64,000 bases of DNA from Elusimicrobiota bacterium (GTDB lineage Bacteria > Elusimicrobiota > Elusimicrobia > Elusimicrobiales > UBA9959). This document shows positions 24,001 through 42,000 of this stretch, one piece after another. A program made the position numbers. Each line of letters starts with the position of its first letter. Positions within the stretch are counted from its first letter, which is position 1. The stretch is from assembly GCA_037137395.1 (NCBI GenBank), contig JBAXKK010000002.1, positions 43,213 to 107,212 of the forward strand, written 5' to 3'.

Positions 24001-27000
24001 AAATACCCTATGACGAATTAGAGGCGATAAATCTTGAAGCGGCGGAAGCGGCTGAAACACTCCCCCCCGCGGAACTTGAAAAAAAATACCGCTCGTATCT
24101 GCACAAAGAAAAACGCATCAAAGCGGTAACGCTTTGTTTCTCAGATATAGAAGGGCGCTTCCATATGCTCGACTATGATAAGCAGTATTTTTTAAAAGCG
24201 GATGACAACCTGACCTTTGACGGCTCATCCATCCGCGGTTTTTCCGCGCAAAAGGAGTCCGATCTCAGACTCGGGATCGACTGGAGCAGCATCTTCTGGC
24301 TCCCCTCCGATGTGTTCGGTCCGGGCAAGGTAATTCTTTTCGCCACGGTCCTAAACCGGGACAAGACCCCCTACGAATCCGATTTCCGTGCGCATCTGGC
24401 CGAACTCGCAAGGGAAATGAAAAAAACGCGAGGCATCACCGCGAATGTCGCCGCCGAAGTGGAAGGCTTCCTAGTAAACGGGCTCAATGCCGAACAAATC
24501 TACGATAAAGTGAAGGGGTTTGACCTCATTTCTACCGGCGGCTATTTTCACTCCCTGCCTCTGGACCGCCTAAAAATATTCATAGACACCGCCGCCGAGT
24601 CACAAAGGGCTATGGGATTCAAGAACGAAAAGGACCATCCGGAAGTGGCGCCCTCACAGTTCGAACTCAACTTTTCTTACGCTAATGCTGTACGAGCCTG
24701 TGACATGATCCAGCTGTATAAACTCGTCTGCCGCCAGGTGGCCGCGAACATGGGAATGACCGCGACATTTCTTCCAAAGCCGGTTTCCGGAGTGAATGGC
24801 AGCGGCATGCATCTTAATCTCTCTTTTTTTAAGGGCGGACAGAATATTTTCTACGATAAGAAAGGGGAGGACGGCCTGTCAGCGATAGCCTGGAACGCTA
24901 TTTCACGGATACTTAATAACGCTCAGGAACTTTCGCTTATCTTAAATTCAAGCGTGAACGCCTACCGGCGCCTGGATCCGCGCTTTGAAGCTCCGAACCA
25001 GATCAAGGTCTCCTCCGTTGACCGCGGAGCCATGATACGCATCCCTGCCGGGAACGAAACATCCGCCCGCATAGAGATCCGCTCAGTCGGTCCGGACGCA
25101 AATCCGTACCTCGCTTTATACGCGCTCCTTCGCACAGTCCTGGAAGGATCGCCTCTCACGAAAGATAAAAGCAAGCGCGACCGCGTACGGTGCCTTCCGG
25201 GGAATATCTATGACGCCATACGAATATTCCGCGCAAGCGAATTTATAAAGGCGGTTATGGGCGCGGCGTCGCACGAAAAGTACGCGTCGCACAAGCAGGC
25301 TGCCGCGGATCGCAGTCCGAAAGAGTTGGGAATGATAGTAAAGTCGGCGGAAGTCCTATTCCACCACGAAGTGACAAATCAAATGCTCTGGCACAAGTTT
25401 TAACCTGAAAACTTTAGTTGAAGTTTTCCGCCCGCATAGCGGGCGCCCTTCGGGAGGAATACACCCGTCGGGCCTGTCGCGCATAGCGCTTGGCCCTCCG
25501 CCCGCTTCGCGGTGAATCCTGCAGAATAATCCTGTTCCCCTGATTTCTCTATGGGAATCATTCTGAACTGCAGGATTCGGGTTAAAAAACGCAAACAGTG
25601 AAACGTAAAGAGTAAAGAGTTATAAGACATGAACTTTTTGCTCTTTACGATTTACGATTCCCGCTTTACGCTCTTTATCGCCGCAAGAACTTTCTCGGGA
25701 GTGAACGGCGAAGAAAACAGCCGCGCGCCCACGGCGTCACGCACTGCGTTGGCCACCGCGGGCAGCGGGCCGTTGATGCCTATCTCAGAAACAGACTTGG
25801 CTCCAAAAGGCCCGTTGGGCTCAAACGTAGGAATAAGGATGGTTTTAATAGGCGGCATATCGGCGGTGTTAAATATTTTATAGCGCCGGAAGCTGGCGTT
25901 AAGCGGCGTGCCATTCGAGGAGAACTCCATCTCTTCCGAGAGGGTGTGGCCTATCCCGTTCAGCACGGCCCCGTCGTTCTGGCCTTCAGCCAGTTCCGGA
26001 TTTATGGCGGTGCCGCAGTCTACGCAGGAAATATAATTAAGTATCGTTATCTTGCCTGTCCCCGTATCAACTTCCACTTCCACGAAATTGGCCGCGAAAG
26101 GCGGCGGAGAAGTGTGGGCGTAATGGGAGGCTGAAGCCACGATCTGGTGCTGGTCATAATAATAAAGCGAGGTATTGGCCACCTCGGAAAGGCCGCAGGC
26201 CGCTCCGTCTTTCGCTAAAACCTTTCCACCCTCAAGGCGCAGGTCATCAGGCTTCCTGTCAAGGATCTTCGCCGCCACCGCTATAATCATTTCGCGGACC
26301 TTTTCCGCCGTCTTCTTTACGGCGTTGCCGGAAATGAACGTAGTTGATGAGGCGTAAGCCCCCACATCGAAGGGCGTGAGATCAGTGTCGGATGAATAAA
26401 CTATGACATCTTCGGCTTTTACTCCGAGGACCTCGGCCGCTATCTGGGCGAGGATGGTGTCGGACCCGGTGCCAAGATCCGCGGCGCCTACCATCAGGTT
26501 GAAGGAACCGTCCTCGTTCATCTTAAGCGTGGCGCTGGCCATGTCTACCTCGGGGATGCCGGAGCCCTGCATCATACAGGCCATACCGAGCCCGCGCCTC
26601 AATTGACCGCTCTGGTTTTTATATTTTTTCTTTTTCTCGTGCCACTTTATAGCCTTAAGCCCCGCCTCTATGCCGTCATAAAGACCGATAGACGTGATGA
26701 CCTGCTCAACGCCCTCACGGCCCTCCCCCATGGCTTTAAACACCGGCGAGCCCTCGCCCAGGCGTATGTAGTTTTTTTTGCGGAACTCCACGGGGTCCAT
26801 GCCGATCTTTTCCGCCATTATATCCATCTGCGACTCCCAAGCGAAGAAACCCTGTGTAGCGCCGTAGCCGCGGTAAGCGCCGGAAACCGGCAGATTGGTA
26901 TAAACGCTCTTGCCTATGAATTTTATATTGTTCGCCACCCTGTACATCGGCAGGGTGTGGGATCCCGAGCACATCATAACTGTCAGCGCGTGCGAGCCAT

Positions 27001-39000: not shown

Positions 39001-42000
39001 AAAGATAAAGGTGGTCGGTACTGGTCGTACAACCGGTTAAAAGCAGTTCGCCCAGGCCGACCTGAGTGCTGGCGTAAACAGACTCAGGTGAGATATGCCG
39101 CCATATTTCATAGAGGTAAAGGAGCCAGTCAAAAAGCTTGGCGTCCTGCACTGCGGGTAGGTTGCGCGTCAGTGTTTGATAAAGGTGATGATGTGTATTC
39201 ACGAAGCCGGGCAGGACCACGCAGTTTTTAGCGTCTATAACAGTATCGGCCTTCACTCTGAGACCTTTGCCGATCTTCTTTATCTCGGGGCCCTCTATAT
39301 AAATATCGCCGCCCTTAATTTCCCGGCCTTCGCCGTCCATGGTCGCCAGGACCAAAGCGTTCTTTACGAGTATAGACTTATAAGCCATGATCGCTCCTTA
39401 TAAAAACCCACCACCCTTATATTATCCAAAATTTGTTCATCGGATAACCATATGTTTGTATCGCGTCCGTTTTTGTGGAATAATATCAGAAGGTTATGTC
39501 TTTTCTCAAATTAAGAAAGCCTCTTAACGGTCTTAAGGAACTCCGGGACTTTGATCCCGGCCTCTCCGATCTTGCCGCCCTGCTGATAGGCGCCAAGCCG
39601 GTGCTTTACACGGATTTCTCCGCCGCCGGTTGGCCCTATATAAAAGAACTGTGCGAAGCGCTGAAACTAAAGTACCTTATGCCTGAACCCGTTTACGGAA
39701 CGGCGGGCTTCAAAGCTGTACCGGATTCCGGAAAACGGATGCTGCTTATAGGTAAAAATCAGAAAACCCTGAAAGACGCCGCCAAAAGTTGGCATCGCTC
39801 CCCCACCGATCCGGCCTGGGGCCTCCTGCTCGGCTATCCGGAATGCTGCGTTAAGGCTTATATAGAATGGCGTTCGGTGGCGGACAAAACCGACCTTGTT
39901 AATTTCACCCTGAGCAGGACCCGGAAAAAAGAACGATATCACTTCGGCCTAAACAACATCTTTAATTATTTCTCGCGGCTGACAGGAAAGCCGGCCGACA
40001 TGGAAGGTTTCGCGCGCATAAGAGCAGCCAATAAAGACCTGGATATTTCAACTTTGCAGATAATCAGCTGGCACCCCTGCGCCTATGACTGCGGCCCCAG
40101 CGGGAAACTTGCCAAAGAGATCTTCTCATTCCTTCAACATTATCTGCCCGGGCGCGCGGCGGAACTAAAAAGCCGACTTGCAAAACCTGTTCTCTTCCGG
40201 GATAAATACGAGTACCTGCTTTTGGATGGTCTGGCAAAGGGCGCTGAAGTCCGCTACCGAGGCATAACCAAACCCGAAGGCCTGCTGCCTAAAGAACTAA
40301 CGCGCAAGATAGCGGCCGGAAATTCACTTCGCGCGGAAAAAGGCCGCGTCACGGTATTTAAAGGTTCCAAACCTCTTTACGAAATAGTCTCAGACAGGCC
40401 TTTTTCGCTGTTAAACTTTACGGTTTCACAACGATAATGCTAAAAATTATAGAATCTATTGTAATCCGGGCTGTTTGATGAGCATAGCTCTTGATACGGC
40501 ACCGGCATAGCCTGGGCCGTTTGATGAGCATAGCTCTTGATACGGCACCGGCATAGCCTGGAGAAAAATATGTCAGAAAAAATAAATTTCCTGTCAGACG
40601 CTCAGCTTAAATCGGAGGCAGAGCGCTGTCTCTATTGCGAAGAAAAACCATGCAAGGCAGCCTGTCCCGCGGATTGCTCCCCGGCCGACTTCATAATGGC
40701 GGTACGTCAAATGGAAAAATCAGACTTCAAGAGGGCTGCCAAGCTGATAATGGGTCACAATACTTTCGGCGGGGTCTGCGGAGCCGTCTGCCCCGACTGG
40801 TTCTGCGTGAAAGCCTGCTCTAGAAAACTTTTCGACAATCCGATCAATATTCCCGCCGTCCAAGCCGCAATTGTGCAGAAGGCTAAAAAAATGGGAGTGA
40901 TGCCAAAGTTTAAGAAGGCCGGTTCCACCGGTAAAAAGGTCGCCGTAATAGGCGCGGGACCGGCGGGCTTCGCCGCGGCCGCGACCCTCGCCCAGCTGGG
41001 CTATAAAGTGGATGTTTTCGAGAAGGATAAAAAGGCGGGCGGCGCCTGCAATCTGATACCGGACGCTCGCTTCCCCAAGGAAGTCCTACGCACTGAAATA
41101 GAATTTGTAAAAACTCTGGGCGATATCCGTGTTAAAACAGGTGCGGCCGTCAAAAACCCCGCTTCCCTGCTTAAGAAGTATGACGCGATTATAGTCACCG
41201 CAGGGGTGGAAAAGCAGATAAAACTGAACATCGAGAACGAAAACCTCGGTGTGGAAGGCCTGGAATACCTTCGCAACACCTCCAAATACAAAGTAAAGGG
41301 CAAAAATGTGGGCGTAATAGGCGGCGGCGCCGTAGCAGCCGACTGCGCCATGAAGGCGCTGGAACTGGGCGCGGCCAAGGCGGAGATTTTCACCCGCAAG
41401 AATATAGGCGATATACAGCTGCCGGAACGGGAATTGCGCGACATACTCAAGGCAGGGATCAACATAAACGCCAAGAGCCGCCTCACGGGGATACTAAAAG
41501 CCGGGAAAGGAATAAGAGTTGTGCGCCTCGACAACAAGGCTAAAGATATCCCGGGCACTGAACAGGCACGCGCGGATATAAACTTTGTTGTGCTAGCCAT
41601 AAAAAACACACCTGTCTTTGACGACCAAAAGCAGAAGGGAGTGTTTCTCGCCGGCGACTGCCGCAATGGGGCCGCGACCGTGGTGGAGGGCGTCGCTTCC
41701 GGCAAGAACGCCGCCATGGAAGCCCATACTTTTATGCAAGGCAAGAAACCCCCATCTATTCCCAACAACCTTAAAAGCGTTACTATTCTTAAGGGCAGAG
41801 ATATGCTGCCGGTTGATCTGACCACGGACTTTTTCGGCCGCAAGATCCGTTCCCCCTTCATCATCTCAGCCTCTCCCCATTCCGACGGCTACGACCAGGT
41901 GAAGCTGGCCTACGAGGCAGGTTGGCCCGGCGTGGTGATGAAAACCGCCTTCGACGGCCTGGATATACATATTCCTGCGGAGTACATGGTCACGTTCAGC

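Follow-up and report, generated by a model that had tools for sequence, protein, structure and literature searches.

Repeated deletion of molybdenum-cofactor synthesis genes in a family of Elusimicrobiota that keeps its molybdoenzymes, and a candidate route of cofactor uptake

The genome studied here (G000), from an Elusimicrobiales lake bacterium, encodes three xanthine-oxidase (XO)-family molybdoenzymes (XDHs). In its family, repeated deletion has removed a gene block that covers pterin synthesis, tungstate import and metal insertion, and the XDHs and their maturases XdhC and MocA remain under purifying selection despite that loss. Orphan molybdoenzymes have been described before, though not explained; the new element in this work is a candidate importer encoded where the block was lost. 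We infer that uptake of the molybdenum cofactor (Moco) from outside best explains the orphan enzymes, and salvage of metal-loaded molybdopterin by a Moco auxotroph is the reading that we consider probable, if far from assured. Uptake had already been proposed in a first-pass annotation; tests bear out the pattern of occurrence, the true deletion and the selection on enzymes and maturases, the uptake step itself being our interpretation.

The molybdoenzyme cluster

The window, a 64,000-nucleotide stretch of contig JBAXKK010000002.1, holds two of the XO-family large subunits (L1 and L2; Table 1), and a third (L3) lies on contig C10; Pfam MoCoBD_1 has three matches in the genome. Profile searches thus agreed with the first-pass annotation on all three, as on the positions of XdhC and the MocA-like nucleotidyltransferase. 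The XO-family architecture is complete, with a hammerhead domain, two Moco-binding domains and Fe–S and FAD subunits. L1 can be aligned end to end with 1rm6_A, and the structures nearest to the MocA-like protein are MocA/MobA-related (2we9). The CsgG/FlgO-domain protein recurs in 44 of 80 xdhC-centred loci, from both producers and non-producers of the cofactor.

Table 1. Features of the molybdoenzyme cluster in the window and of the cassette on contig C60
Location	Strand	Feature	Matches and remarks
25652..27973	-	XO-family large subunit L1 (773 aa), XdhD/YgfN-like branch	NCBIfam XdhA 711 bits, Se_sel_red_Mo 627, both under cut-off
28054..28563	-	2x[2Fe-2S] small subunit, enzyme 1	dN/dS 0.079
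28573..29400	-	FAD subunit, enzyme 1	dN/dS 0.090
29411..30283	-	FAD subunit, enzyme 2	dN/dS 0.144
30402..30926	-	2x[2Fe-2S] small subunit, enzyme 2	dN/dS 0.084
30916..32241	-	Secreted CsgG/FlgO-domain protein within XDH cluster	Pfam CsgG, FlgO; weak PagL (outer-membrane-barrel) match
32288..34576	-	XO-family large subunit L2 (762 aa), purine-hydroxylase type	Best model PucD
34616..35467	-	XdhC, cofactor-binding/sulfuration chaperone	Pfam XdhC_CoxI and XdhC_C, both above cut-off
35452..35979	-	Hypothetical protein, genus-only	No family; seen in 4 genus relatives among loci compared
36021..37268	-	CitMHS/ArsB-type anion permease between mocA and xdhC	Pfam CitMHS
37326..38015	-	MocA-like, putative Mo-MPT cytidylyltransferase	TIGR03310 129 bits (cut-off 186) against MobA 54
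38012..39388	-	8-oxoguanine deaminase family amidohydrolase	NF006055 634 bits, above cut-off 532
40537..43017	+	PreT-PreA-like flavoenzyme fusion	PreA and YgfK models matched under cut-off; outside the span first annotated
43055..44380	+	SsnA amidohydrolase, reductive uricolytic pathway marker	NF005540 and TIGR03314 above cut-off; outside the span first annotated
C60 4750-5520		Methyltransferase	
C60 5537-7198		ECF S-component::helical membrane domain::THEP1 NTPase fusion	
C60 7219-9228		TonB-dependent receptor	Pfam plug and barrel domains above cut-off
C60 9270-9773		NikR-fold regulator	

As described in the relevant passages of PMC12507026, which mention SsnA in Elusimicrobiota, the reductive uricolytic cluster of E. 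coli and C. difficile (XdhD-YgfM, YgfK/UacX, SsnA) resembles the one found here in grouping XdhD-like and XdhA-like enzymes, a dihydropyrimidine-dehydrogenase-like flavoenzyme and SsnA. By analogy with those passages, the PreT-PreA-like fusion probably takes the place of YgfK/UacX in breaking down urate reductively. Unlike the genomes with that cluster, the present one lacks cofactor synthesis and gave no tblastn match to SelD, YqeB or YqeC of the selenium-dependent molybdenum hydroxylase system (one query each from locus L208).

Absence of the canonical cofactor-synthesis genes

The genome bin is 98.9% complete and 7.7% contaminated, in 174 contigs. Profile searches and tblastn with proteins of relatives upheld the reported absence of MoaA, MoaC, MoeA and Mog. 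MoaC was not found in the assembly (the search control was positive in 11 of 14), MoeA had no match there, and the sole MoCF_biosynth match in the genome is CinA; with Mog, MOSC, MoaC, MoeA, TupA, TupB and AOR of relatives as queries, tblastn returned no match at E 0.1. The best MoaA match is 29% identical, against 55–69% among true orthologues, and none of the seven MoaA-like radical SAM ORFs scanned exceeded 87 bits with the moaA model, which has a cut-off of 284 and gives a relative's MoaA 308, in keeping with their earlier reading as other radical SAM proteins. These ORFs resemble HxsC, SPASM and QueE types. The lack of a molybdate or tungstate transporter stood as well, with no ModA-type binding protein matched in the assembly and no ModABC, TupABC or MOT1 oxyanion importer found in the genome. 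MoaE is indeed missing from the assembly, but it is equally missing from all 80 family genomes, producers included, so its absence here says nothing. The claim that synthesis is wholly missing holds for moaA, moaC, moeA and mog, but a MoaD-like/MoeB-like pair, both members under NCBIfam cut-offs, is kept on contig C33.

Distribution in the family and the deleted site

A sample of 80 family genomes, 52 of them of good quality, reproduced the earlier tallies of near-universal XDHs and MoaC in about half: XDHs occur in 78, MoaC in 42 and MoeA in 44 (51, 29 and 29 of the good-quality genomes, respectively). XDHs are present in 36 of 38 non-producers, although the non-producer calls for G013, G014, G025, G061 and G075 are probably assembly gaps. 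Within the genus, one genome in seven (G074) has MoaC and MoeA, in a block between the carboxypeptidase gene and pruA, as first reported. Over the family, the synthesis block goes with the tungsten enzyme AOR rather than with the XDHs: subject to the caveat that kin are not independent, 35 genomes have both MoaC and AOR, 7 MoaC only, 6 AOR only and 32 neither. MocA goes with the XDHs: 74 of the 80 genomes have it, and of the 23 good-quality non-producers 22 do, the one without MocA lacking XDHs too. Two genomes (G028 and G059) have lost moaA-moaC-MOSC and kept moeA and mog, the pattern to be expected if metal-free pterin were salvaged.

The empty site is spanned by contigs in eight genomes of three genera (G000, G077 and G078 in g1; G023 and G026 in g11; G039, G063 and G066 in g13), deletion scars with AOR remnants are visible in G063 and G039, and the site has been refilled with the same architecture in G000 as in G078. 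That pruA and the carboxypeptidase gene lie on an unbroken C60 with other genes between them was corroborated by this spanning and by run X1, in which three overlapping contigs covered udk to pruA at a depth of 13–14 with no other letters. A 79-kb metagenome contig (L253) has the same C60 gene order at 100% identity, although it may be the source assembly. A short repeat is present on C60 between the carboxypeptidase and udk genes.

Selection on the orphan enzymes

E242, R320 and E723 of L2, the counterparts in alignment of E232, R310 and E730 of R. capsulatus XdhB (1jro_B), do not vary in any of 21 orthologues. The catalytic Glu and pterin-binding Arg residues are likewise invariant as pairs in all three large subunits (E723/R352 in 21 orthologues of L2, E730/R368 in 25 of L1, E758/R387 in 30 of L3), and the catalytic Glu is kept as the first-pass annotation had it. 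No fixed difference separates producers from non-producers in any of five alignments. Between the non-producers G000 and G078 (dS 0.28–0.40), dN/dS of the large subunits is 0.015–0.059 (L1 0.042, L2 0.059); it is 0.066–0.079 in the non-producer pair G023–G026 and 0.046–0.104 in orthologous producer pairs. For XdhC, the non-producer pair gives 0.13 against 0.09–0.12 in producer pairs. MocA gives 0.23 for G000–G078, 0.10–0.12 for deeper non-producer pairs and 0.13–0.16 for producer pairs; the value of the closest non-producer pair slightly exceeds those of producers, which we count against salvage. In XDH trees the non-producer enzymes form no clade of their own, and the MoaC label is so dispersed that supported branches require at least 4–5 changes.

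The C60 cassette as a candidate importer

The cassette on C60 is the likeliest candidate for the importer of the cofactor, an assignment that we hold tentatively and at somewhat less than even chances. A model of the S-component N-domain (pLDDT 91) aligned with YkoE (5edl) at Z 14.4 and rmsd 3.2 over 155 residues; 5edl and six of the next seven rows of that structure search are S-components, other ECF S-components following at Z 8–9, and 5edl was also the top Foldseek match, with probability 1.0 but E 0.2. The cassette resembles the group I ECF importer YkoEDC in this YkoE-like S fold and in the A and T components of homologous operons, and BtuB-type vitamin uptake in setting the S domain behind a TonB-dependent receptor. 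Unlike YkoEDC, the G000 cassette has its S domain in one fusion protein with a helical membrane domain and a THEP1 NTPase, and it has no ABC ATPase, which is present in L198, L202, L211, G005 and G008; the middle domain of the fusion can be aligned to the T::NTPase ORF of L198 but has no CbiQ match. The S domain is also only 14% identical to YkoE, and its gene context points to molybdenum, not thiamine.

In other bacteria, cassette homologues adjoin xdhC, mocA, mobA, modE, tupA and molybdoenzyme genes. Receptor/ECF/xdhC operons hold such homologues in 3 of 80 xdhC loci (L198, L202, L211), and such homologues adjoin tupAB, AOR or xdhC in L270, L281 and L269. Among 39 annotated distant loci, 10 place the homologue beside a molybdoenzyme or nucleotide maturase and 4 more beside a ModE-like gene, counts that have no matched neighbourhood control and in which partial kinship leaves about 6–7 independent contexts; 25 have no molybdenum gene. 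Within the family, a receptor homologue lies inside the Moco block of G030. In 19 hand-picked genomes of the 80, the S gene was present in 11 of 12 XDH-positive non-producers, neither of two XDH-less genomes and 3 of 5 producers; it was not found in the non-producer G017, lacks the NTPase part in G043 (a non-producer) and G030, and has no adjacent receptor in G043 and G074. A single ExbD-like query for the TonB-ExbBD energiser had no match in the genome. The YkoE-fold S-component family is widespread and comprises 1557 clusters at 50% identity.

Should salvage be right, the cassette might still take up a metal (Ni, Co, molybdate or tungstate) or another vitamin while Moco enters by another route, which we regard as rather unlikely but as claiming a real share of that explanation. 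It would suit the NikR-fold regulator, the presence of the S gene in producers, the best receptor models (haem, siderophore or B12, all under cut-off) the neighbours within the family, among which genes of general metal handling are frequent (Fur-like, NifX-like, CbiMQO in G023), and the DUF364 neighbours, which have a link to metal chelation (PMC2954201). However, all five cassette regulators lack the His/His/His/Cys nickel site of NikR (the C60 regulator was aligned to 2bj1 and 1q5v), whereas the true NikR beside CbiMQO in G023 has the nickel ligands. Without MoeA, imported molybdate could not be put to use, the fold is nearer to YkoE, with its organic ligand, than to CbiM/NikM (Z 7.9–8.2), and homologues share operons with xdhC.

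The CitMHS/ArsB-type permease was rejected as a non-producer-specific importer (25 of 42 producers against 23 of 38 non-producers). Neither a Cys-less sulfite-oxidase-fold protein nor a Moco riboswitch was found in this genome.

Salvage and its alternatives

Peng, Xu and Zhang (2018; PMC6147048) counted 305 Moco-negative but enzyme-positive genomes among 5387 bacteria, with orphan XO-family genes and neither a Moco pathway nor a molybdenum transporter, as here. Their figure gives Sphaerochaeta globosa Buddy 5 and 1 enzymes in two columns, which by column order we read as XO and AOR, and no pathway. The passages of that survey dealing with such cases leave open pseudogenes, sequencing gaps, new biosynthetic parts and Mo-independent forms, salvage not being among the options they list. 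Beyond that survey, deletions, selection and maturase retention were tested here and an importer is proposed.

A route without MoaA, MoaC and MoeA homologues might be hidden throughout the family, with the canonical block serving AOR only and MoaD/MoeB as the visible sulfur-transfer part; we consider this improbable. One of two MoaD types is found in 71 of 78 XDH-positive and neither of two XDH-less genomes, the two do not occur together (40 and 32 genomes) save for one partial copy, one of them is located inside XDH clusters, and neither MoaE nor ThiG is present as a client for MoaD/MoeB. The family already uses a non-standard MoaE-less route, as does G. metallireducens (PMC2700814), and new biosynthetic parts are an option named in PMC6147048. 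Yet GTP cyclisation, cPMP formation and metal insertion would all need replacing at once, no molybdate importer was found, 30 XDH-cluster regions yielded no further conserved gene, and the MoaA-like ORFs look like the radical SAM types named above.

Less probable again is that the enzymes work without Moco, either as Fe–S/FAD complexes for electron transfer or binding or by means of a different metal centre. A protein under selection need not have its cofactor bound, and Mo-independent forms were raised in PMC6147048; however, the Mo-site residues are invariant without difference between producers and non-producers, whose enzymes form no clade, MocA and XdhC, which serve only a pterin cofactor, are kept and selected, and AOR, an unrelated pterin enzyme, is kept in G078 without the block at its usual site. 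That the losses are recent and the enzymes idle relics yet to decay has a slimmer chance: losses scattered over the tree tips and scars still visible would fit, but G000 and G078 combine a shared replacement architecture with appreciable dS and low dN/dS, G023 and G026 are alike in this, and all eight sampled genomes of genera g3, g5 and g6 lack MoaC and MoeA while keeping 2–3 XDHs each. Least probable of all is that assembly or binning missed the synthesis genes, since 20 of the 52 good-quality genomes have XDHs without MoaC and MoeA, far above 0–10% incompleteness, and the spanned sites, scars and L253 (possible source assembly) outweigh the contig number and contamination, the C60 repeat, the block being cut by contig ends in several family genomes and its placement elsewhere in some producers.

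Under salvage of metal-loaded molybdopterin, the organism would be a Moco auxotroph still running a molybdenum-dependent purine-breakdown pathway. Because MoeA and Mog are gone and MocA is kept, the entering form would be metal-loaded Mo-MPT, or a dinucleotide trimmed to it. It might cross the outer membrane through the C60 receptor and the inner membrane through the S-component, as B12 does; MocA would add CMP, and XdhC would carry the product for sulfuration, to which the retained MoaD/MoeB pair may contribute, and insert it into the three XDHs. The idea has a parallel in Caenorhabditis elegans, which, according to the sections of PMC7849362 on dietary Moco, takes up protein-bound Moco and, when Moco-deficient, runs its molybdoenzymes on the cofactor of other cells, independently of biosynthetic enzymes. 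That case concerns an animal digesting bacteria, with uptake shown by experiment, whereas ours concerns a diderm bacterium and genomes; the same sections note that free Moco is unstable and that E. coli moaA mutants given protein-bound Moco did not pass Moco to worms, two points that weigh against salvage.

More speculatively than for the C60 cassette itself, diderm bacteria may treat Moco as a vitamin, importing it by way of a TonB-dependent receptor and the YkoE-fold S-component family, with a MoaE-less MoaD/MoeB relay sulfurating or repairing the salvaged cofactor. Even producers in the family may supply their XDHs by this route, since the synthesis block that they have is linked to tungstate import and AOR. 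If true, vitamin-like import of Moco would account for part of the known orphan molybdoenzymes.

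Molybdoenzymes of the genome

The Elusimicrobiales genome under study, G000 (a bin of 2.70 Mb in 174 contigs; completeness 98.9%, contamination 7.7%), encodes exactly three large subunits of the xanthine-oxidase family (XDH) by tblastn, L1 and L2 in the window (C2:43213-107212) and L3 on contig C10, each accompanied by Fe-S and FAD partners. The window cluster also encodes XdhC, a MocA-like transferase, 8-oxoguanine deaminase, a PreT-PreA-like fusion and SsnA, the same gene make-up as the reductive uricolytic cluster, whose presence in Elusimicrobiota is on record (PMC12507026). 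The inventory of the first-pass annotation (three large subunits, XdhC and a MocA-like maturase) was thus borne out by tblastn and family scans. A DMSO-reductase-family match on C21 is a NuoG-like subunit of a complex I operon. At the C10 locus, genes of an allantoin/oxamate-type end pathway are split by ~5 kb of unrelated genes. In many genomes of genus g13 (L082, L043, L087 and others), the position that L2 has in the window-type cluster is occupied by a Rhodobacter-type xdhAB with moeB and moaD on its flanks.

The nearest titled relatives of G000 are Elusimicrobiales metagenome bins, and the oxygen-defence genes of the window point to an anaerobe. DNA of the window cluster was found in freshwater and lake metagenomes, with at least half of its words in two runs of one study; there were no RNA runs among the listed runs containing it.

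Features discussed in the text (G000 unless stated)
Feature	Position	Locus	Content
Oxygen-defence genes	window 21738-23517		rubrerythrin, thiol peroxidase, desulfoferrodoxin-like genes (names by sequence reading)
Histidine utilisation-like genes	window 46246-52004		imidazolonepropionase, urocanase, histidine ammonia-lyase (names by sequence reading)
Third XDH locus	C10:1-13793	L024	XDH with cyclase, nitrilase-family amidase, AllH, FdrA, YlbE-like genes
MoaD/MoeB pair	C33:13580-14719	L121	MoaD/SAMP-like and MoeB-like genes
HxsC-like locus	C61:221-5742	L123	three HxsC-like radical SAM genes adjoining a cysteine-desulfurase-like gene
Integrase	C60:841-1878		tyrosine integrase adjoining a probable tRNA at the contig start
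Short high-copy repeat	C60:~3780-4000		within the carboxypeptidase-udk gap only
C60 cassette	C60:4750-9773 (outside window)	L023	NikR-fold regulator, TonB-dependent receptor, 553-aa membrane protein, methyltransferase
Flavinylation cluster	C8:8839-15037	L122	NusG-II, Gx transporter fused to CbiQ domain, possible porin, ApbE, FMN-binding protein
Fusion scar of G063	L051:6482-6901 (locus on a 528-kb contig)	L051	open ORF

Absence of cofactor synthesis and transport genes

The MoaC, MoeA, MoaE and ModA families had no match in G000, with controls positive in 11-14 of 14 genomes, and queries for Mog, MOSC, MoaC, MoeA, TupA, TupB and AOR from relatives gave no tblastn match at E 0.1. Searches of G000 for DUF364, ModE, MOT1 and Cys-less sulfite-oxidase-fold proteins were likewise negative, and a TtcA/TtuA paralogue was not found with a TilS query, which is a weak test. 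The molybdenum cofactor (Moco) riboswitch occurs in 4 of 80 family genomes, all of them producers (genomes with MoaC), and not in G000. The sole MoCF domain of G000 belongs to CinA, and a family scan of the MoaA-like ORFs agrees with the first-pass annotation that they are other radical SAM enzymes; the HxsC-like genes on C61 possibly form a peptide-modification locus. The reported lack of MoaA, MoaC, MoaE, MoeA, Mog and a transporter therefore holds, except that the absence of MoaE is uninformative, since none of the 80 family genomes has it; the same gap is known in G. metallireducens (PMC2700814).

Enzymes of this kind lacking a pathway are not new, as 305 bacteria with Moco-dependent enzymes, mostly of the DMSO reductase and XO families, were reported to lack it by Peng et al. 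(2018, PMC6147048), who suggest new components or Mo-independent forms. An unrecognised route making the pterin cofactor is unlikely. ORF clustering of 30 XDH-cluster regions revealed no further shared transporter or synthesis gene; the MoaD/MoeB pair retained on C33, for which G000 has no MoaE or ThiG client, may serve to sulfurate the cofactor or to repair it, and would fit such a route too. Two MoaD types, found in 40 and 32 of the 80 genomes, are mutually exclusive apart from one partial copy, and one or the other is present in 71 of 78 XDH-positive genomes and in neither of the two XDH-less ones. The second type, unlike that on C33, lies with moeB within XDH clusters, including those of non-producers. 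Between G000 and its relative G078, the C33 moaD differs by 19 synonymous and 2 non-synonymous codons. In a Bathyarchaeia record (L219), a MoaD-like gene 31% identical to that on C33 lies between two XDH-family operons, adjoining xdhC.

Maintenance of the enzymes and their maturases

L2 retains the counterparts of E232, R310 and E730 of R. capsulatus XdhB, whose roles we take as commonly understood. Across 21 orthologues of L2, 25 of L1 and 30 of L3, these residues or the ones equivalent to them never vary, and the L1-L3 orthologue alignments hold no fixed difference between producers and non-producers. The Mo-independent forms suggested by Peng et al. would here mean XDHs that function cofactor-free, which we consider quite improbable.

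G000 and G078 have the replacement cassette in common; their pairwise NG86 dN/dS is 0.042, 0.059 and 0.015 for L1, L2 and L3 (dS 0.28-0.40), 0.13 for XdhC and 0.23 for MocA, with 0.025 for pruA and 0.016 for udk. The G023-G026 pair gave 0.079 and 0.066, and orthologous producer pairs 0.046-0.104; these comparisons exclude G034-G031 L2 and FeS2, which are paralogues, and the saturated G005-G006 and much of G008-G009. To place the MoaC label on the XDH trees takes 9 and 6 changes, at least as many as with shuffled labels; of these, supported branches force at least 5 and at least 4 (the second tree being a quick tree). The XDHs are evolutionarily maintained, and that they are idle relics is very unlikely.

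MocA is present in 74 of 80 genomes, including 22 of 23 good-quality non-producers. MocA follows MoeA in the established pathway and takes Mo-MPT as its substrate. XdhC is described as binding the cofactor and sulfurating it (PMC13653126). Retention of both without MoeA thus points to a source of metal-loaded pterin. We favour, as the probable explanation, that Mo-MPT is salvaged from outside and then matured by MocA and XdhC.

Deletion of the synthesis block

As the first-pass annotation had proposed, XDH is near-universal in the family and the synthesis genes are patchy: XDH occurs in 78, MoaC in 42 and MoeA in 44 of 80 genomes (51, 29 and 29 of the 52 of good quality, 20 of which have XDH with both MoaC and MoeA missing). 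Producers carry a single tupABC-moeA-moaA-moaC-MOSC-mog block, often with AOR and adjoining pruA. Full-length AOR and MoaC occur together in 35 genomes, MoaC only in 7, AOR only in 6 and neither in 32, counts among kin that are not independent. Judged from this co-occurrence and from the 36 of 38 non-producers that have XDH, the block resembles a tungsten/AOR module, on which the XDHs do not depend.

The caveat that a bin may miss genes was checked at the usual block site, using 20 fetched regions plus C60 and requiring a second anchor gene. Eight genomes of three genera span the site without the block (G000, G077, G078, G023, G026, G039, G063 and G066); G005, G006, G043, G047, G068, G075, G076 and G079 have no second anchor and were not counted. 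In G063 the scar joins the signal-peptide start of tupA's upstream neighbour to the 53 C-terminal residues of AOR, and AOR fragments remain at the site in G039. G028 (L027) and G059 (L062) have lost moaA-moaC-MOSC and retain moeA and mog, G059 also tupB and tupC, with a moeA-mog spacing of only ~250 bases. In sequencing run X1, udk to pruA is covered by three overlapping contigs at even depth with no other letters; the C60 repeat, which interrupts the carboxypeptidase-udk gap alone, has a depth of 70-105 versus 14 in this run. An integrase gene lies on the same contig. Assembly gaps probably account for the absences in G013, G014, G025, G061 and G075. The loss of the block is real, and binning is the least credible explanation of the missing genes in G000.

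A candidate importer

The CitMHS/ArsB permease of the XDH cluster was rejected as an importer: it shows no link to non-producers (25 of 42 producers versus 23 of 38 non-producers) and is also missing from non-producer G043. A CsgG/barrel protein occurs in both groups and is missing from the fetched regions of non-producers G005, G006 and G028.

The cassette at the deleted block site on C60 may be a cofactor importer, a tentative assignment. Its membrane protein carries a THEP1 NTPase at the C-terminus; since a full-length fold search matched only this domain, the membrane domain was folded separately. The N-terminal 186 residues (pLDDT 91) matched YkoE (5edl) at Z 14.4 and other S-components at Z 8-9, and an Atlas search gave the same ECF S-component lead. 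The regulator lacks the NikR nickel ligands. The S-component gene (dN/dS 0.17) and the receptor gene (0.10) are under selection. Of 19 hand-picked family genomes, XDH-positive non-producers have the S gene in 11 of 12 cases, producers in 3 of 5 and XDH-less genomes in neither of two; the copies of G043 and G030 are shortened. In G030 a receptor homologue is found within the Moco block, and cassette neighbours in the family are often general-metal genes.

Homologues occur in 3 of 80 xdhC-centred loci, in receptor/ABC/S/T operons whose last gene is xdhC; one of the three also includes a MocA-like ORF. A metagenome scan for S-gene homologues yielded 80 loci, with neighbours annotated for 39 of the 50 more distant; the Pfam scan covered 172 of the 196 cluster representatives that these loci and 11 closer ones supplied. 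Ten of the 39 hold an XO-family, DMSO-reductase, formate dehydrogenase or nitrate reductase gene, or mobA/mocA/xdhC, to be read against a rough yardstick (under 2% of G000 is at most 5 kb away from a Moco gene) rather than a matched neighbourhood control. Four more have a ModE-like gene, and 25 have neither kind. In closer loci the S gene sits beside tupAB, AOR or xdhC. The commonest neighbour of the homologues is DUF364, for which a flavin or pterin derivative has been proposed as substrate (PMC2954201). The G000 cassette contains no ABC ATPase, and the one search for a TonB system in G000, with an ExbD-like query, was negative. The sole CbiQ match of G000 sits in the flavinylation cluster, with no Moco link found.

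Implications

Moco is regarded as too unstable to share. Its uptake has been shown in C. elegans (PMC7849362), loss of its synthesis is listed for Haemonchus (PMC7619442), and cross-feeding in an anammox consortium was proposed from genome content only (PMC10116762). Nothing on bacterial uptake was found in PMC12636525 and PMC13144720, and we found no published Moco uptake or importer in bacteria, in a search with thin coverage of subscription journals. What we propose is a vitamin-style salvage of a cofactor that bacteria are not known to salvage. The missing genes, their deletion, the selection on the enzymes, the S fold and the genomic surroundings of its gene are observed; uptake, the form of cofactor that enters, what the importer carries and what MoaD/MoeB do are inferred. 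The importer candidate is new; the orphan molybdoenzymes, unexplained in hundreds of bacterial genomes since at least 2018, are a known puzzle, now in a well-resolved setting where repeated scarred deletions, lasting selection and a nameable importer open it to direct experiment. If salvage is true, Moco would be a traded good in anoxic communities, alongside B12 and other vitamins, purine, aldehyde and nitrate metabolism would be predicted differently from genomes, and there would be a Moco-binding transporter to study.
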